From Minisyncoccia bacterium (GTDB lineage Bacteria; Patescibacteriota; Minisyncoccia; UBA6257; JAAZHW01): a stretch of DNA of 64,000 nt. The stretch lies in contig JBNASH010000036.1 in assembly GCA_049720475.1 (NCBI GenBank), positions 1,339 through 65,338 of the forward strand, read 5' to 3'. The notes beneath the pieces were generated by a model, which searched no databases, was not told where the DNA came from, and was given only the letters and a program-made list of their open reading frames with translations. Of the stretch, positions 575-44,984 are shown in pieces (position 1 is the stretch's first letter; the number at the start of each line of letters is the position of its first letter). The position numbers and the translations under genes are program-made.

Positions 575-2023
575 ATGCAAAAAAAATTTAAACGTTTATT
601 ATTTTTCATTGTTTCTTTTTTGTTTTTAATTATTGCGGGTTTTTTTGTTGCTTATTCCTTTGGTTACCGTTGGGATCATGGAGATTGGAAATTTGTAAAA
701 ACAGGGGGTTTATATTTAAGAGTTTATAATAGCAAGCCGGAAGTTTATTTGAATAATCAATACTTAAAAAAAGCCACGCCTGGATTATTAAGCAGTGGCA
801 TTTTTTTACCTAATTTAATTCCAGATAATTATTCTATTTCAATCAAAAAACCAAATTATTTTTCTTGGGAGAAAGAAACAAAAATCGAACCACAAATGGT
901 AACGACTTTTTCTTCGGTTGTTTTGTTGCCAAAAAATCCTCTGGTAGAGGATGTATATTCATTAGGTGCAACTTCAACTTTAGAAATAACAAAAATTTTA
1001 CCTTTAAAAAATTATAAAGAAATAATTATCCAAGGAATTGAAACGACAACCTCTACAAATGCCCTAGTTTTTATTTATAATTTTAACAACCAAAACCAAA
1101 CAGAAATTTATAGAAAGAAAATAAACAAAGGAGAGAGTTTTAATTTAATTCCTAATTTAATTATTGCTGATAATGATGCCAACGAAATAATTTTTTCTTT
1201 AACGGTTAATAAAACGACAAATTTTTATTTATGGCAAAGAATCAACCCAGAAAATTTAAAAAACATTTCCCAATTAATCATCTCCCAATTTAAATTAAAA
1301 AACCCCATTAAAAAAATAGATTTTTATCCTAACGCCGAAAACAAATTTATTGTTTTGACCGGAACTGATTTGGCTGTCGTTGATTTGAATAAAAATGAGA
1401 TTAAAAAAATATTTTTAGATGTGAAAGATTTTGTGAGAAAAGATTACAATCTTTTTATAATTAACAATCAAAACGCCGCTTTTAGTTATAATTTGATTTT
1501 AGACACTAGCTCGCCATTAGGAATTTTAGAATTAGATTCGAAAAATGGTATTGAAAAAATTGAAATATCGCCTAAAAATACCTACTATGCTATTTGGTTG
1601 AGAAATAAAGATTTATATCTTATGAAAAGTGGAGAAGAAATGTTAAAAATTACCGATGTCGATTTGTTCGCTTTTTCGAATGATGATAAAAAATTAGCTT
1701 ATATCACCAATGGTGAATTACGAGTTAGATATTTGGTCGATTATAATGGTGATGTTTTATATAAAAAAGGGGACGATGTTTTGATAAAAAAATTAGAGGA
1801 TGGCGCGGATAATTTAATTTGGCACGCCGATTTAAACCACTTAATTTATCAAAAAAATAATAAAATTTATTTTGCGGAAATTGATGTGCGGGATAAAGTA
1901 AATGTTTTTGATTTAGAATTTGATTTTAAAAACTTTTATTTAGAGGGAGATAAAAATGGAACAGTTTTTACTTGGAATGATAAATTAATTAAAAGAATAA
2001 ATCTTCTTTTTGAACAATTTTAA
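575..2023 (+). CDS. hypothetical membrane-anchored protein, possible beta-propeller-like repeats
   Basis: N-terminal hydrophobic helix (LLFFIVSFLFLIIAGFFVAY) followed by long soluble repetitive region; no recognisable catalytic motif. Confidence 0.4.
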   Translation: MQKKFKRLLFFIVSFLFLIIAGFFVAYSFGYRWDHGDWKFVKTGGLYLRVYNSKPEVYLNNQYLKKATPGLLSSGIFLPNLIPDNYSISIKKPNYFSWEKETKIEPQMVTTFSSVVLLPKNPLVEDVYSLGATSTLEITKILPLKNYKEIIIQGIETTTSTNALVFIYNFNNQNQTEIYRKKINKGESFNLIPNLIIADNDANEIIFSLTVNKTTNFYLWQRINPENLKNISQLIISQFKLKNPIKKIDFYPNAENKFIVLTGTDLAVVDLNKNEIKKIFLDVKDFVRKDYNLFIINNQNAAFSYNLILDTSSPLGILELDSKNGIEKIEISPKNTYYAIWLRNKDLYLMKSGEEMLKITDVDLFAFSNDDKKLAYITNGELRVRYLVDYNGDVLYKKGDDVLIKKLEDGADNLIWHADLNHLIYQKNNKIYFAEIDVRDKVNVFDLEFDFKNFYLEGDKNGTVFTWNDKLIKRINLLFEQF

Positions 2024-2063: not shown

Positions 2064-3743
2064 ATGGAACAAAATGATAAAAATGCACAATTGGCGGAAA
2101 TGATTAAAAAAGCGCAATTAGCCGCTGAAGAAAGAGAGGCGGAGCGATTAGCTAAATCTCTTGGTTTTAAATATGGCGATTTGACCAAAATTGCTTCTCA
2201 AACAGATGCGTTGGAGTTAATTAGCGAGGAAGAGGCAAAAACTGCTCTCTGTGCGCCTTTTATGTTAAAACAAAAAACGGTTTTGTTGGCTTGTAAAAAT
2301 CCGGCTTTGGAAGAAACAAAGAAAGTGATTGAAAAATTAAAAAATGATGGCTATGAATTAGAAATTTATGTTGTTTCGATGAAGTCTTTGGAAAACCTTT
2401 GGCAGGGATATCGTTTTATTGTTAGTAGAAAAAAGGAAATTACCGGCGGCATTGAGGTGGATAAAGATAATTTGATAAGAATAATGGAAGAAGTTAAAAC
2501 CGTTCAACTTTTGCAAGAAAAAATAAAAAGCTTTAATAGTCCTTATATTTCTCAAATTTTTGAAATTATTATTGCTGGAGCGATTGTAATGGAGGCGTCG
2601 GATATTCATATTGAACCAGAAGAAAGCGGCGTTCGATTAAGATATCGTTTAGACGGTGTTTTACATGATGTTTCGGATTTAAGCCAGCACCATTATCGTT
2701 CCATCCTTTCTCGTATTAAATTGTTGGGCGGAATGAAAATTAATGTTCATACCGCGCCACAAGATGGAAGATTTACTATTAAGACTTATGATGTTGATAT
2801 AGAGGTGCGTGTTTCAATTATTCCCAGCGCTTATGGAGAAACAGTTGTGATGCGATTGCTTAATCCTAAAAACATTCGCTTAGATTTGAAAGATTTAGGT
2901 TTTCGCGAGGATGATTTAGCAATTATAGAGGAGCAAATTGAAAAACCGAACGGTATTATTTTAAATACTGGTCCAACGGGCTCTGGTAAAACAACGACTT
3001 TATACGCCTTTTTGCGTCGTATTTATAATCCCGAGATAAAAATTATTACTGTTGAAGACCCAATTGAATATCATTTGGAAGGCATTACACAAACACAAGT
3101 TAATCCAGCGCGTAATTATACTTTTGCTTCTGGTTTGCGTTCGATTTTGCGTCAAGATCCTGATGTTATTTTGGTAGGTGAGATTCGTGATAATGAAACA
3201 GCTGAAATTGCCATGCACGCTGCTTTAACTGGGCATTTAGTTTTTTCCACCCTACATACTAATGATGCTTGCGGCACCATTCCTCGGTTGTTAGATATGA
3301 ATATTCAGCCTGCTATTTTAGCTCCAGCTTTAAATTTGGCTATTGCCCAACGTTTAGTAAGAAAATTATGCCAGTATTGTAAAGAACCAGTGGAATTAAC
3401 GGCGGAACAAGCGGAGAAAATTCGAAAAATGGTTGAAAAAATGCCTGCTCGAGTTAAAAAACCGGAATTAGGAGAGAAAATTGTAATTTATAAATCCAAG
3501 GGCTGCGATCATTGTAATGGAACAGGTTATAAAGGAAGAGTGGCGGTAGCAGAATTATTAGTGGTTGATAGAGATATTCAAAATTTAATTACTCGTTCAG
3601 ACAAAATGCCGACAGCAGCCGAAATTAAAGATTTGGCAATTCAAAAAGGAATGACAACAATGGAAGATGATGCCATTTTGAAAATTTTGGCAGGCATTAC
3701 AAGTTTGTCAGAAGCCGAGAATGTTTTGGGTAAGATTTTGTAA
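2064..3743 (+). CDS. pilB: type IV pilus / type II secretion assembly ATPase (PilB/GspE family), copy 1
   Basis: Walker A GPTGSGKTTTLYA, GspE N-terminal domain, tetra-Cys CQYC...CDHC zinc motif, strong identity to second copy at 27435. Confidence 0.85.
   Translation: MEQNDKNAQLAEMIKKAQLAAEEREAERLAKSLGFKYGDLTKIASQTDALELISEEEAKTALCAPFMLKQKTVLLACKNPALEETKKVIEKLKNDGYELEIYVVSMKSLENLWQGYRFIVSRKKEITGGIEVDKDNLIRIMEEVKTVQLLQEKIKSFNSPYISQIFEIIIAGAIVMEASDIHIEPEESGVRLRYRLDGVLHDVSDLSQHHYRSILSRIKLLGGMKINVHTAPQDGRFTIKTYDVDIEVRVSIIPSAYGETVVMRLLNPKNIRLDLKDLGFREDDLAIIEEQIEKPNGIILNTGPTGSGKTTTLYAFLRRIYNPEIKIITVEDPIEYHLEGITQTQVNPARNYTFASGLRSILRQDPDVILVGEIRDNETAEIAMHAALTGHLVFSTLHTNDACGTIPRLLDMNIQPAILAPALNLAIAQRLVRKLCQYCKEPVELTAEQAEKIRKMVEKMPARVKKPELGEKIVIYKSKGCDHCNGTGYKGRVAVAELLVVDRDIQNLITRSDKMPTAAEIKDLAIQKGMTTMEDDAILKILAGITSLSEAENVLGKIL
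3120..3270 (+). repeat. nucleotide-level conserved paralogous segment shared by pilB-1 and pilB-2 (second copy about 28570-28720)
   Basis: e.g. ggtaggtgagattcgtgataatgaaac-gctga...gcacgctgctttaac present in both copies with only a few substitutions. Confidence 0.6.
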
Positions 3744-3766
3744 TCTTTGCGCTTATTTTTAAATTC

Positions 3767-3793
3767 AAAACCGCCCTTATAGGGGGCGGTTTT
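3767..3793 (+). terminator. intrinsic terminator hairpin after pilB-1 (palindromic, possibly bidirectional)
   Basis: aaaaccgccc-ttatagg-gggcggtttt: 10-bp GC-rich stem, A-run upstream and T-run downstream. Confidence 0.5.
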
Positions 3794-3804
3794 GAATTTG
3801 AGAA

Positions 3805-4000
3805 TAAAACAGCCTTTTTAACCCGGAGGCAATTTAATCTCGCAAAACAGGGCTGCGAGCTCAAGAATTTTTTAAGGCAATCCGCACAGGGCGGACGAAT
3901 AACCCAGCCGGAGCCAGGTTACCCTTAAAAAAATTCCCTATAGGCTATAAATTGGGTTAAAATTATAACGCCAATTGCCCCCAGGTTAAAAAGGCCGTTT
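3805..4000. ncRNA. candidate structured small RNA (6S-like closing stem?), identity unknown
   Basis: About 190 nt with GC well above local background, no ORF; long-range inverted repeat cagcctttttaacccggaggcaatt ... aattgcccccaggttaaaaaggccg closes the region; internal hairpins ctcgca/tgcgag and ccgc/gcgg; T-run after closing stem on + strand. Confidence 0.3.
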
Positions 4001-4196
4001 TTATATCTGTTCCATTATTTAATTAAAGAGCGTTCTAATTATAGCAAAAAATTATTTTTTGTCAATAGTTGACTAAAAGGAGATAAAATAGCAAAATATT
4101 TTAAATTAAAATGGTAAAAATTATTGTAGCAAAAAAAAGAAGTCAAGTCAAGATAACTGTGGATAACTTAATAAACCTGAAAAGAGGATTATTACA

Positions 4197-4224
4197 TTGA
4201 AAAGAACGGGGGATGTGTTATAAT
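4197..4224 (+). promoter_or_regulatory. sigma70-like promoter for ruvB (TTGAAA -16 nt- TGtTATAAT)
   Basis: -35 ttgaaa 4197-4202, extended -10 tgttataat ending 4224, ATG at 4241, no SD. Confidence 0.5.
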
Positions 4225-4240
4225 TTTAAATTGAAAAGAT

Positions 4241-5254
4241 ATGTCAAAGAATATTTTTAAAACCGATCCAATTTTAGACAACGCTTTGCGTCCAAAAAAG
4301 TGGCATGATTTTGTTGGCCAAGAAAAAGTTAAAGAAAATTTGAAAATAATGATTGAAGCGGCGCGCAAAAGAGCAGAAGCAGTAGACCATTTATTGTTTT
4401 ATGGTTGTGCTGGTTTGGGAAAGACAACACTTGCTTATTTAATTGCCCAGGAATTAGAAGCAAATATAAAAATCACTTCTGGGCCGGCCATTGAAAAGGC
4501 AGCTGATCTTGCTTCGTTGTTGGCTAATTTAGAAGAAGGAGATATTTTGTTTATTGATGAAATTCATCGTTTAAATAAAATGATTGAGGAAGTTTTATAT
4601 TCGGCAATGGAATCGCGCGTTTTAAATTTGGTATTAGGAAAAAAAGCATCAACGCGCGCTGTTCAAATTGATCTGCCCCCATTTACTTTAATTGGCGCCA
4701 CTACCCGCATTGGATTATTGTCTAGTCCTTTGCGTTCTCGTTTCGGAGCAATTTTTAAACTGGATTTTTATGAGATTGAAGATATTAAAAAAATTTTAGC
4801 CAACAACGCGCGATTGCTCAATATTGAAATGACGGAGGGCGCTAAAGAAATTTTAGCTAAGGCGAGTCGAGCAACCCCGCGCGTAGCCAATCGTTTATTA
4901 AAGCGCAGTCGAGATTTTGCTACAGTAGAAGGAAAAAAAGTAATTGATGAAGAAATTGCCCAAAAAACCCTAAAATTATTTGATATTGATGAATGGGGAT
5001 TGGAAGCAACCGACCGTCGTATTTTAGAGGTAATTGTTGATCGTTTTAATGGCGGGCCGGTGGGTATTAAAGCCTTGGCGGCAGCAACTAATGAAGAAGA
5101 AGATACAATTGAGGAGATTTACGAACCTTATTTGATGAGATTGGGATTACTGGAAAGAACTATCCGTGGCCGCATTGTAAGCGAAGCCGGTTATAAACAT
5201 TTAAACCTTTATCATTTAGCTAACAAAACACAGCAGAAAAAACTCATTGATTAA
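4241..5254 (+). CDS. ruvB: Holliday junction branch migration helicase RuvB
   Basis: AAA+ motifs GCAGLGKTTLA, LFIDEIHRL, sensor and winged-helix C-terminus typical of RuvB. Confidence 0.9.
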   Translation: MSKNIFKTDPILDNALRPKKWHDFVGQEKVKENLKIMIEAARKRAEAVDHLLFYGCAGLGKTTLAYLIAQELEANIKITSGPAIEKAADLASLLANLEEGDILFIDEIHRLNKMIEEVLYSAMESRVLNLVLGKKASTRAVQIDLPPFTLIGATTRIGLLSSPLRSRFGAIFKLDFYEIEDIKKILANNARLLNIEMTEGAKEILAKASRATPRVANRLLKRSRDFATVEGKKVIDEEIAQKTLKLFDIDEWGLEATDRRILEVIVDRFNGGPVGIKALAAATNEEEDTIEEIYEPYLMRLGLLERTIRGRIVSEAGYKHLNLYHLANKTQQKKLID

Positions 5255-6563
5255 AGGGAATTTTAGTATGAAAAATTTAGATTTTTTTACTAAGATTTTC
5301 TTTTTAATAGTCATTTTTCTTTTCTTTTGTTTTTTTAAGTCCCAAGCAGCCGGATCAATAATCATTAATGAAATTATGTATGATTTGGAGGGGGCGGATA
5401 ATGATATGGAATGGATTGAGTTAAAAAATATTTCTAGTGAGCCAGTTGATCTGAGTGGTTGGAAATTTAATGATGGCAGTAATCATTTGTTGAATCCTCC
5501 TCCAAAAAACGGAGGACAAGGCTCGATGATTGTTCCGCCAGAAGGCTTTGCAATTTTGGCTGATAAGGCAGATTTATTTTTGCAAACCCATCCAAATTTT
5601 TCAGGCATCGTAATTGATACGGTTATGAGTTTGAATAATACGGCGGCCACGTTGAAGTTAATTGATAAAAATGGTAATGTAGTTGAGGAAGTTTCTTATA
5701 ATAAAAATCAAGGCGGCAATGGTAATGGTTTTTCTTTGGAGCGAATATCTGATTCTGTTCCTGATTTTTGTGAGTCAAATGTTTTGGGAGGTACACCTGG
5801 CGAACAAAATAATTTTAATTGTCAAAAAGTAAATTCAAGTATTTCACCCAGCCAGCAACCAACTCCGGTAAATACTCCTTTGTCAACGCCAGTTGCTCAA
5901 ATTGAAGAAAATGAAAAAGAAGAAAATCTTACTCCTCCGCCAACGAGCAACAATATTATTAAAGTAAGAATTATCATCAATGAATTTTTGCCTAATCCGG
6001 TTGGCAATGATGAGGAGGGTGAATGGATTGAATTGTACAATGATAGTGAAACAGATGTACCATTGAAAGGGTGGCGGCTAGAAGATGTTAGTGGTCAAAA
6101 ATATTCTTTTAAGGATGAGGTTATCAAAGCAAAAGATTTTCTTGTTTTGCCTTATAAAACAACAAAAATTACTTTGAATAATAGTAATGAAACATTGACT
6201 TTGTTTTCTCCAAACAATGAAATGGCTTTTAAAATTAGTTATATAGGAAAAGCAGAAGAAGGATTTTCTTATGCGCGGATAGGTCCTAATAATTGGCAAT
6301 GGACTTCAATTTTGACGCCAGGCAAACCAAATCAATTTGAAAACACCCAAGCGAATAATCAGAAAAATTTTGAGGTTGATTCTATTGTTGAAGGAAATTT
6401 AACCAAAAATCAATCAAGCGTCGATCTTCCAACTTCTCAAGCCAACAATTATTCGCAAAAACAAACCAATAATTTTTCTGATAAAATTATCATAATGATT
6501 TTTGGAATTGGATTAGTTTTTAGTGTGGCAACGGCAATTTTTATCAAGAAAATTCTGCCTTAA
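5247..6563 (+). CDS. secreted/surface protein with two lamin-tail domains (LTD) and C-terminal membrane anchor; more likely start at 5268 (MKNLDFF)
   Basis: Two copies of the LTD signature INEIMYD...EWIELKN...L.GW and INEFLPNPVG...EWIELYN...LKGW; N-terminal signal/TM; C-terminal hydrophobic helix IIIMIFGIGLVFSVATAIFI. Confidence 0.6.
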   Translation: MIKGNFSMKNLDFFTKIFFLIVIFLFFCFFKSQAAGSIIINEIMYDLEGADNDMEWIELKNISSEPVDLSGWKFNDGSNHLLNPPPKNGGQGSMIVPPEGFAILADKADLFLQTHPNFSGIVIDTVMSLNNTAATLKLIDKNGNVVEEVSYNKNQGGNGNGFSLERISDSVPDFCESNVLGGTPGEQNNFNCQKVNSSISPSQQPTPVNTPLSTPVAQIEENEKEENLTPPPTSNNIIKVRIIINEFLPNPVGNDEEGEWIELYNDSETDVPLKGWRLEDVSGQKYSFKDEVIKAKDFLVLPYKTTKITLNNSNETLTLFSPNNEMAFKISYIGKAEEGFSYARIGPNNWQWTSILTPGKPNQFENTQANNQKNFEVDSIVEGNLTKNQSSVDLPTSQANNYSQKQTNNFSDKIIIMIFGIGLVFSVATAIFIKKILP

Positions 6564-38146: not shown

Positions 38147-38218
38147 GCGGGTGTGGTGTAGTGGCAACACGTCTGCTTCCCAAGCAGAAGATCGGCGGTT
38201 CAAATCCGCTCACCCGCT
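38147..38218 (+). tRNA. tRNA-Trp (anticodon CCA)
   Basis: Cloverleaf: acceptor gcgggtg/cacccgc, anticodon stem ctgct/agcag with loop tcCCAag, T-loop ggttcaaatcc. Confidence 0.85.
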
Positions 38219-38240: not shown

Positions 38241-38312
38241 GCCGAGGTAGCTCAATGGCAGAGCAATCGCTTCGTAAGCGATGGGTTGGAGGTTCGAATC
38301 CTCTCCTCGGCT
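38241..38312 (+). tRNA. tRNA-Thr (anticodon CGU)
   Basis: Acceptor gccgagg/cctcggc, anticodon stem atcgc/gcgat with loop ttCGTaa, T-arm ggagg-ttcgaat-cctct. Confidence 0.85.
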
Positions 38313-41147: not shown

Positions 41148-41220
41148 TTGCGGGGTCGTCTAATGGTAGGACGCCTGGCTCTGGACCAGGTAATCTTGGT
41201 TCGAATCCAAGCCCCGCAGC
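41148..41220 (+). tRNA. tRNA-Gln (anticodon CUG), exact ends uncertain by 1-2 nt
   Basis: D-stem cgtc/gacg, anticodon stem cctgg/ccagg with loop ctCTGga, T-arm cttgg-ttcgaat-ccaag, acceptor gcgggg/ccccgc. Confidence 0.6.
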
Positions 41221-43603: not shown

Positions 43604-44912
43604 TAGGGAGTATATAGAGATATACCCTATAAATTGGCGGAATGTAAGTCAGAAAATGGTAGACAAAATATTTTCCAGCCGCTCTTTTGATTTTATTAAA
43701 GAAATCAGCATCTATGTGCATATTCCTTTTTGCCCCACTATTTGTCCCTTTTGTAAATTTAATATTTCAAAATACGAACCTTTAATTTATCAAAAATATC
43801 TCGGTGTATTAAAAAAAGAAATATCCCTATTTAAAAATCATCCAGATTTACGAAACCGAATTGTTACTGCTATCTATTTTGGGGGTGGTACCGGATCTAT
43901 GTTAACTCCCACTGACATTGATGCGATTTTAAATCTAATAAGTAAAATTTTCAAATTAAGTGATAAAACAGAAATTACCGTAGAATGCCATCCAAGCACA
44001 GTTAATGCTAATAAATTAAAAGAATATAAAAAAGCAGGTGTTAATCGTGTGAGTTTGGGGATCCAATCTTTTCAAGATCAAAATTTAAGAAATATTGGGA
44101 GAAACCATTCAGCTGAACAAAATGAGAAACTTTTAAAAGATGCTCTAAAAATAGGATTTAATTGTGTAGCGATGGATTTAATGTATAGACTTCCAAATCA
44201 AGATTTTAAAAATTTAAAATTTGATCTTAATAAAATTAAAAAACTTTCTCCAGATGGAGTTAGTGTTTATAGCTTGGAACCGGAAGCAACTCCTTTAGAG
44301 AGAAAAACTTCAGAGATGCCACCTGAAGAGATTGATAGGGAGATGTTTTATTTTATTGGAGATTTTCTTGAAAATATTGGTTATCGCCGCTTTATGCAAC
44401 CTGATTTTTCAAAACCTGGCAAAGAATGTAAATATGTACTAAATGCTTGGAAAGCGCCACAACAATTAATGATTGGTTTTGGTGCTGGTGCTCATACGCA
44501 TTATTTTGGAAATCATGTATGGGCAAATGTTTATCCTATAAAAAGTTATATTGAGGCTCTAGAGAATGGATATTTTCCAGGAGTTATGGGTATTGAGGTT
44601 CCTCTAAAAGAATTGAAAGCGAAATATATGGTTTTAGGCGTTCGACATCTTTCAGTAGAAAAAGCAAGTTTTGAAAGAATGTTCAAAGAAAAAATTAATG
44701 ATATATATAGTGCAAAAATTAAAGAATTGAAAAAATTAGGATGGATAGTCGAAGAAAATGGTTGTTATAAAATAACCAGAGAGGGATTCTATTATATTGA
44801 TAACATATCAAAGACATTTTATACCAAGGCAAATAAAGGGGAAGGTCAACCTTGGCTTAAAGGTCTTTATAATTATATTCCTAAGAAATTTTACAAACCA
44901 TCAAAATTTTGA
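43575..44912 (+). CDS. HemN/HemW-family radical SAM enzyme (coproporphyrinogen oxidase-like; class C rSAM)
   Basis: YVHIPFCPTICPFCKF (CxxxCxxC in HemN context), GGGTGS, 445 aa with HemN C-terminal domain. Confidence 0.8.
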   Translation: MKNMKNIKVDREYIEIYPINWRNVSQKMVDKIFSSRSFDFIKEISIYVHIPFCPTICPFCKFNISKYEPLIYQKYLGVLKKEISLFKNHPDLRNRIVTAIYFGGGTGSMLTPTDIDAILNLISKIFKLSDKTEITVECHPSTVNANKLKEYKKAGVNRVSLGIQSFQDQNLRNIGRNHSAEQNEKLLKDALKIGFNCVAMDLMYRLPNQDFKNLKFDLNKIKKLSPDGVSVYSLEPEATPLERKTSEMPPEEIDREMFYFIGDFLENIGYRRFMQPDFSKPGKECKYVLNAWKAPQQLMIGFGAGAHTHYFGNHVWANVYPIKSYIEALENGYFPGVMGIEVPLKELKAKYMVLGVRHLSVEKASFERMFKEKINDIYSAKIKELKKLGWIVEENGCYKITREGFYYIDNISKTFYTKANKGEGQPWLKGLYNYIPKKFYKPSKF

Positions 44913-44984
44913 CAAAATTCATAAAATTTGTTAAGATTGTTAAAGAGTGAAAAACTTTTTAACAACTTAAATGGAGGTGAAATC

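Follow-up and report, generated by a model that had tools for sequence, protein, structure and literature searches.

Does the spacer between a pilB-type ATPase gene and ruvB hold a gene of its own in the 64-kb stretch of DNA analysed here (the window) and, if so, from which strand is it read and what kind of product does it make? An earlier note on this DNA had singled out an ORF-free segment of the spacer as a candidate small RNA, had placed it on the plus strand and had found its size and long closing stem reminiscent of 6S RNA. We find that the spacer element is a genuine small RNA gene and that it lies on the minus strand.

A structured element between pilB and ruvB

The genes that border the spacer are both encoded on the plus strand.

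2064-3743, plus strand: PilB-type (T2SSE) ATPase gene (Pfam T2SSE, E=9e-121), convergent with the RNA and its conserved 3′ neighbour
4241-5254, plus strand: ruvB (Pfam RuvB_N, AAA_lid_4 and WHD_RuvB), divergent from the RNA and its conserved 5′ neighbour in most loci

The long-range closing helix proposed earlier is encoded by two inverted arms of 29 nt (3806-3834 and 3973-4001), which are 90% complementary and have 138 nt between them. The internal hairpins reported with it were also recovered: ctcgca/tgcgag at 3839-3859, ccgc/gcgg at 3881-3895. On the minus strand the core of the RNA spans 4001-3806, a length of 196 nt. Its GC content of 43.9% lies above the background, as had been noted, both of the window (32.7%) and of the remaining pilB-ruvB spacer (23.4%). 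The element likewise carries no ORF of at least 40 aa on the plus strand; on the minus strand a mechanical 55-aa ORF (3697-3864) overlaps part of it. Its position is as first described: the pilB terminator (3753-3807) precedes it, and a promoter-like site for ruvB (4197-4224) follows.

The arm motif is unique within the 64-kb window, where its expected count is 0 (100 shuffles). The minus strand folds at -91.5 kcal/mol (z=-8.6) and the plus strand at -65.3 kcal/mol (z=-4.3), and for neither did any of 200 dinucleotide shuffles do as well. Given the unique arms, the better-than-shuffled folds of both strands and a GC content above the surroundings, the element is not a chance feature.

The assignment to the plus strand did not hold. 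A T-run does exist on that strand at 3998-4004, as the earlier note had it, but it is only the complement of an A-run at the 5′ end of the minus-strand RNA. All three mismatches between the arms are transitions, leaving G·U on the minus strand and A·C on the plus strand. A covariance model, R1, was built from ten sequences with the window copy among them; that copy, being one of the ten seeds, matches R1 over the full model length at E=8e-27, with 119.7 bits for the minus strand and 36.4 bits for the plus strand. We therefore place the RNA on the minus strand, because of its better fold, its R1 score, the excess of G·U over A·C and the consensus promoter upstream.

Homologues of the RNA

By its RuvB the source of the window belongs to the Parcubacteria/Paceibacteria. 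This RuvB has a best genome match of 84% identity, and the remaining loci stand at 55-63%. A search by nhmmer with the minus-strand sequence returned weak matches at nine loci, all on the same relative strand and just upstream of ruvB, and each of the nine folds into the same design as the window copy. Of 80 RuvB-anchored loci, 72 yielded the RNA with R1, the opposite strand scoring far lower in every case, and five more copies that R1 missed were recognised by eye. To avoid anchoring on ruvB, metagenome contigs were also scanned with a 28-nt pattern from the core of the long arm H2 (see below), a pattern that favours two subfamilies. It matched 90 stretches, and R1 confirmed 77 of the 80 loci among the matches listed. 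Two close relatives outside the seed, L158 and L130, score 103-104 bits with R1. The RNA had no matches in viral contigs, and a phage origin was rejected on this ground.

In total about 150 homologues were collected from Parcubacteria/Paceibacteria genomes and metagenomes, of which 130 are distinct, with lengths of 124-217 nt (median 167 nt). The RNA family is widespread across Parcubacteria/Paceibacteria and, as far as sampled, confined there. Three close metagenome relatives (L158, L130 and L122) carry RuvB proteins 88% and PilB proteins 85-90% identical to those of the window. Their RNA body is about 95% identical and their -35 and -10 elements are intact; the leader, terminator and hairpin loops diverge, and the closing helix has compensatory changes. 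Selection thus appears, from these comparisons, to act on the body of the RNA.

The closest genome representative (L002, RuvB 84% identical) is missing the RNA upstream of ruvB, and its PilB synteny is also broken. In its place, L002:5690-5950 holds GC-rich, partly repeated inverted segments, e.g. CAGCAGTCATCCTGAGGGCAAAGCCCGAAGGATCCC and GTCATTCTGAACGAAGCCCC..., which resemble a different repeat or mobile element. The only other assembly with the exact RuvB (L001, Logan contig SRR30978041_4552) starts about 10 nt outside the closing helix of the RNA, at the equivalent of window position ~3795; this break coincides with the region of the long hairpin and terminator.

A stand-alone gene in a fixed neighbourhood

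The following features flank the body of the RNA.

4060-4065, minus strand: -35 hexamer TTGACA, consensus, retained by about 50 of 72 homologues and by the close relatives
4038-4046, minus strand: extended -10 element TGCTATAAT, conserved in L158, L130 and L122; TGnTAnnAT is common in the family
4002-4034, minus strand: predicted 5′ leader from the start to the closing helix, differing among close relatives and probably not functional
3753-3807, both strands: bidirectional intrinsic terminator, an inverted repeat with T-runs on either side and a core stem at 3767-3793

TTGACA, a 16-nt spacer and TGCTATAAT together make a promoter with 12 of 12 consensus positions and an extended -10, directed into the element. 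It is the sole perfect TTGACA-N16-18-TATAAT within the 64-kb window on either strand. The only other promoter-like site in the window that combines TTGACA with an extended -10 (TGnTAnnnT) lies at 44909-44937 on the plus strand. Judged from the position of the -10 element, transcription is predicted to start near 4031-4034. Among the homologues, those with a perfect TTGACA (~50/72) mostly have a 17-nt spacer and TGnTAnnAT, and the -10 elements end 5-70 nt before the helix. The leader is 0-70 nt long across the family, and its sequence and length diverge even among close relatives. At the other end, UUUUAUU comes after the 3′ arm of the closing helix, and next the GC-rich terminator hairpin, which is predicted to serve both genes, ending the minus-strand RNA as well as plus-strand pilB. 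Many homologues have an intrinsic terminator after the RNA or a U-run directly after the closing helix.

The RNA is always antisense to ruvB and lies 100-400 nt upstream of it (72 RuvB-anchored loci), and the next gene downstream on the strand of the RNA never has the same orientation. Of the 65 RuvB-anchored loci with room for a convergent PilB-type gene, 58 have one that ends no more than 600 nt from the RNA (median gap 65 nt). Essentially all RNA-anchored loci with room also have a convergent PilB-type gene, often at a gap of 3-11 nt. Where the 5′ neighbour is not ruvB, it is yebC followed by ruvC, or a lamin-tail-domain (LTD) gene. No RNA-binding gene is consistently adjacent among the loci examined.

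Since the downstream gene is always convergent, about 50 of 72 homologues retain the promoter and many have terminators, this is a stand-alone RNA gene, locked between pilus-ATPase genes and the ruv gene cluster. In the window it runs, by its predicted ends, from ~4034 to ~3762 on the minus strand and encodes a structured non-coding RNA. The earlier view that the element is not a 5′ UTR is borne out; it is predicted to be an independently transcribed, structured small RNA.

Several further features of the neighbourhood were recorded. A 482-aa ORF directly upstream of the PilB-type gene (575-2023, plus strand) has no Pfam match at E≤1e-5; the same position holds a second PilB paralogue in many related loci, seen as two tandem T2SSE matches. 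An LTD protein gene (5247-6563, plus strand) overlaps the end of ruvB by 8 nt and travels with the RNA/ruv neighbourhood. In some loci the LTD gene is the divergent neighbour of the RNA, and at L093:4554-6221 it carries PKD domains. Unrelated loci (L029:5520-5552; L035:~3640-3710) share sequences such as GGTTCGACAAGCTCGCCAC and GGTTCGACTGGCTCACCA just past the RNA on its downstream side; these look like a dispersed short repeat of the genomes concerned.

Architecture of the RNA

From 5′ to 3′ the minus-strand RNA is built of the following parts, with the two local elements of H2 given after the arm that contains them.

3974-4001, minus strand: 5′ arm of the closing helix, from the fold; 18 of 19 closing-helix pairs in the family show compensatory changes (20 of 25 in the MAFFT alignment)
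3953-3973, minus strand: H1, a small hairpin that not all family members have, with UGG...CCA at its base (MFE decomposition)
3937-3952, minus strand: linker with a possible mini-hairpin CCUAUAGG, clade-specific (MFE prediction only)
3865-3936, minus strand: H2, the long arm and most conserved part, with base, middle and upper helices supported by covariation
3897-3924, minus strand: conserved core of H2, GGGUAACCUGGCUCCGGCUGGGUUAUUC, the seed of the nhmmer and blastn matches
3881-3895, minus strand: extra hairpin UCCGCCCUGUGCGGA in the 3′ strand of H2, clade-specific, present in L158, L130 and L122 with an altered loop
3834-3864, minus strand: H3, a hairpin with core CUCGCA...UGCGAG at 3839-3859; 7 of 7 modelled pairs show compensatory changes
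3806-3833, minus strand: 3′ arm of the closing helix, then UUUUAUU; compensatory changes against L158 and L122

The members of the family are built alike: a long closing helix leads into a three-way or four-way junction, which carries the long arm H2. At 28 bp the closing helix of the window copy exceeds the family median of 23 bp; it shows U-A to C-G and A-U to G·U changes relative to L158 and L122. Its uninterrupted run has a median of 13 bp and reaches at least 20 bp in 40 of 129 homologues, the window copy standing at 28-31. The top of the helix is conserved in sequence as well (CUnnAGRCAAU / AUUGYCUnnAG). In 86 of 130 members the junction strands measure 0-4 nt and are flanked by H1 and H3. 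Hairpins at the H1 position differ in sequence, with several pair types per level and a UNCG, GNRA or other loop. H1 is missing from about 23 short members (~125-150 nt), which hence form three-way junctions; in these, about 10 nt of the 5′ strand are left free. The linker after H1, with its putative mini-hairpin at 3937-3944, is invariant in sequence in the three close relatives and only 2-4 nt long in other members. H3 is conserved in shape only, and its loop sequence is not conserved.

H2 consists of a base helix, an invariant AGGA/UCCU helix with a one-by-two-nucleotide internal loop (C / UA), and an upper helix that ends in U·G, G·U and G-C (5′-UGG/5′-CUG). The consensus of its core is GGgYannnUGGYU..CUGnRnuaunCCuc. 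In the window the tandem wobble is U3916·G3905 and G3915·U3906, followed by the pair G3914-C3907 with a UCCG tetraloop on top. Across the family the tip is a UNCG tetraloop or an insertion of up to ~80 nt, and most homologues do not have the extra hairpin UCCGCCCUGUGCGGA. In two Sungiibacteriota/Parcubacteria loci (L019:5669-5882 and L023:5684-5886) the tip holds a long insertion of CCAGTTAC-type heptamer repeats, which also fill the DNA just downstream of the RNA (flank L019:~5600-5668). The tip of H2 evidently tolerates repeat expansion.

Covariation and conservation

Across 66 model-aligned sequences, 92.3% of cells in the modelled pairs are paired, against 36-49% in slid controls and with 0 of 500 shuffles equal, and 35 of 38 pairs show compensatory double changes. 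A MAFFT alignment of 19 sequences from another subfamily, not fitted to R1, gave much the same picture: 92.6% paired against 40-53% in slid controls, 0 of 500 shuffles equal, and double changes at 33 of 47 pairs. The columns of H1 and of the H2 base were too noisy to refine in the model-derived alignment, and for these the MAFFT subfamily alignment and per-sequence folds were used instead. The earlier note had named a lack of covariation and of conservation in relatives as the outcome that would speak against a structured RNA; what we find is about 150 related loci with abundant compensatory changes.

Over all modelled pairs there are 390 G·U cells and 53 A·C cells, and this strong excess of G·U indicates selection on the transcript of one strand. 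The tandem wobble is near-invariant. Its U·G is kept in 60 of 66 sequences, its G·U in 63 and the neighbouring G-C in 65, and replacement by a Watson-Crick pair was never seen. Because the wobble is never exchanged for Watson-Crick pairs it would be read for its shape, and we take the middle of H2 as the likely, predicted recognition site. Taken together, these data establish an independently promoted and terminated, strongly structured RNA gene with predicted ends, under purifying selection on the minus strand and single-copy within the 64-kb window.

Comparison with known RNA classes

An Rfam 15 scan of the 64-kb window at gathering thresholds returned nothing at the element. The sole Rfam-recognised RNAs are three tRNA genes elsewhere on the plus strand (38147-38218, 38241-38312 and 41149-41219). 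A permissive scan of 3700-4260 (561 nt, E≤10) found no 6S, SRP, RNase P, tmRNA, Y RNA or riboswitch, and permissive scans of 12 homologue loci (E≤5) and of the short form in L020 (E≤10) gave no credible family. What these scans did return was junk miRNA matches, on the terminator hairpin only, and one 5.8S match. The latter, to a stretch of H2 that resembles a 5.8S/23S 5′ end (L020:5830-5882, UGGAUAUCUUGGCUC; 13 bits, sequence-only, E=0.14), is confined to one subfamily and was judged to be chance. A resemblance to the 3′ end of 16S rRNA, seen in some members, was also rejected: at L015:~5770-5800, 12 contiguous nt are identical (CGGCUGGAUCAC, as CGGCUGGAUCAC-UCCUC in the 3′ strand of H2), and the family as a whole does no better than shuffled sequence.

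With bacterial SRP RNA (4.5S / scRNA) the RNA shares a long, hairpin-like form with paired ends and a conserved internal-loop motif near the tip. In SRP RNA that motif is the binding site of Ffh, which is the source of the protein-binding analogy drawn below. It differs in having neither the GNAR tetraloop nor GGAAG..AGCA, its tip being UNCG or a variable insertion, and neither the small nor the large SRP models match in the window, the locus or the 12 homologue loci. RNase P and tmRNA models do not match either; the RNA has no GAGGAAAGUCC-type motif and is too short for either class. The earlier reading that RNase P, tmRNA and SRP signatures are absent thus agrees with the Rfam 15 scans. Y RNAs (YrlA/Yrn1) also pair their ends in a long stem with a multi-helix module above, and are protein-bound and stable, but no Y RNA model matches, and neither H1 nor H3, both with variable loops, shows a T-loop or a tRNA-like module.

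Another parallel in kind is offered by the raiA motif, OLE, ROOL and GOLLD, which are likewise comparative-genomics finds that covary, stand alone, are restricted to lineages and have no known role. There is no match to them in sequence or structure, and the present RNA is smaller than OLE, ROOL and GOLLD. It also differs from such orphan RNAs in keeping a fixed pilB-ruv position, in Parcubacteria/Paceibacteria only as sampled. Canonical SRP, RNase P, tmRNA and 6S RNAs were found neither by a crude regular-expression search of 1.56 Mb of related DNA nor by Rfam in 284 kb, although these neighbourhoods are too small to be informative. A full-text search of the literature returned no CPR 6S RNA and no description of such a structured RNA in CPR bacteria. 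By sequence and structure, the RNA forms a new family with no catalogued relative.

A proposed function in trans

The explanation that we favour as a whole, and regard as somewhat probable, is a stand-alone gene for a stable, trans-acting, protein-binding RNA. By analogy with SRP RNA, it may be abundant and stable and act in trans as the RNA component of a ribonucleoprotein; this more specific claim is plausible, if a little short of probable. Transcription would start at the consensus sigma-70 promoter with its extended -10 and would stop either at the U-run that follows the closing helix or at the terminator used jointly with pilB. The two ends of the RNA pair in the 28-bp closing helix, which would protect both from nuclease, and the junction on top carries H1, H2 and H3, of which H1 and H3 would brace it. 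The closing helix may also stop convergent transcription from pilB. The invariant middle of H2 and the conserved top of the closing helix would form a putative protein-binding surface. We look for the recognition site in H2 because the wobble and the AGGA-C/UA-UCCU loop are invariant and the tip tolerates long insertions.

Three considerations weigh against this explanation. A ligand-binding, catalytic or RNA polymerase-binding role would give similar conservation; the very tight linkage to pilB and ruv could point to a local role in cis; and L002 has no RNA upstream of ruvB, though its pilB synteny is broken as well. The wider proposal, of a novel class of housekeeping ribonucleoprotein RNAs that would occur across all Paceibacteria and perhaps in other CPR bacteria, with a biochemical role distinct from those of 6S, SRP, RNase P, tmRNA and Y RNA, is tentative and rather doubtful. 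CPR episymbionts are thought to depend on DNA uptake and recombination, and the fixed position of the RNA, with type IV pilus/DNA-uptake ATPase genes on one side and Holliday-junction (ruv) genes on the other, may reflect a functional tie to these processes. A further idea, that a four-way RNA junction beside ruv genes mimics a Holliday junction, is weakened by the ~23 three-way members without H1, and we set it aside as remote speculation.

Alternative explanations

Of the alternatives, the one that survives best is a highly divergent 6S RNA (ssrS), which would mimic an open promoter for the sigma-70 holoenzyme, with the closing helix and H2 as its duplexes and the junction as its bubble. The likeness is considerable: both are stand-alone RNAs with a strong promoter, a length of about 150-200 nt (196 nt here; 124-217 nt, median 167, in the family), paired ends in a long closing stem, and a rod form broken in the middle with a long terminal arm. 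The short forms come nearer still, as a closing helix, an asymmetric 'bubble' with a hairpin on its 3′ side and a terminal arm. The literature search described above returned no 6S RNA from the CPR. However, neither Rfam RF00013 nor 6S-Flavo matches the window, the short form or the 12 homologue loci, at E≤10 for the first two and E≤5 for the last. In place of a large single-stranded central bubble, most members have a three- or four-way junction with strands of 0-4 nt (86/130), and what would be the bubble strands are the stable hairpins H1 and H3, with varied, compensating sequences and, for H3, covariation at all 7 modelled pairs. Moreover, the strongest conservation, a tandem wobble and internal-loop motif, sits in the middle of the terminal arm H2 and not around the bubble, and 6S RNAs are in general conserved in shape and not in sequence. 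We consider this reading unlikely, and the resemblance to 6S drawn in the earlier note is not upheld.

Less likely again is that the transcript is a processing precursor, in which the closing duplex is an RNase III site and the active product is an inner RNA of 130-140 nt or small RNAs derived from the duplex. The 28-31 uninterrupted bp of the window copy, and the runs of at least 20 bp in 40 of 129 homologues, would suit such a site, and the strong promoter resembles those of stable-RNA genes. Against this, the median uninterrupted run is only 13 bp, the sequence-conserved top of the closing helix suggests that it is part of the functional RNA, and Rfam scans of the locus and its homologues detected no rRNA-like content.

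We give still lower probability to a mainly cis-acting element, a bidirectional terminator or insulator between the pilB operon and the ruv promoter with no function in trans. Its position is fixed across deep divergence, the pilB stop codon being 0-250 nt away at almost every locus, and the closing helix, with A- and U-runs on its flanks, could act as a terminator in both directions. Yet a terminator needs no consensus promoter of its own, no invariant wobble and internal loop and no covarying inner hairpins; a separate, ordinary terminator is also present in the window and in many loci; and the G·U asymmetry points to selection on the transcript of one strand.

Finally, a plus-strand RNA, a ruvB 5′ leader and the relic of a miniature transposon (MITE) are very improbable and effectively refuted: despite the plus-strand T-run beyond the helix and terminal inverted repeats that are superficially MITE-like, the plus strand folds 26 kcal/mol worse and scores 36 against 120 bits; the ruvB promoter-like site lies downstream of the element and the 5′ neighbour in some loci is yebC-ruvC or the LTD gene; and the element is single-copy in the 64-kb window, orthologous and at the same syntenic site in ~150 loci, seen in none of the viral contigs, with arm mismatches that are G·U on one strand. 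Nor does it lie, as a riboswitch or cis-leader does, upstream of and on the same strand as a gene that it could control, since the next gene is the convergent pilB-type gene; a terminator or U-run follows the RNA, and no riboswitch family matches.

Significance

The stable, protein-binding RNA that we propose would come from a part of the tree where CPR/Patescibacteria make up a large share of bacterial diversity with tiny genomes. To our knowledge, almost nothing has been established about non-coding RNAs in these bacteria. Annotators gain a covariance model for a gene that is now left as blank intergenic DNA, and RNA biologists gain a compact new family (~130-200 nt) to assay for a partner protein, a ligand or an activity. 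Should it prove to be the missing 6S RNA of the CPR, the 6S architecture would be extended to a four-way junction; should it not, it would be a new kind of stable RNA. We hold its novelty with some reserve, as a 6S-like function, if true, would lower it.

Because CPR genomes are so small, little in them is dispensable. A central cellular role is argued for by the presence of the RNA at nearly every Parcubacteria locus examined, by the best promoter in 64 kb, by covariation and by the invariant tandem wobble. Among the loci sampled, the RNA appears to be near-universal in a major, poorly understood lineage with minimal genomes.
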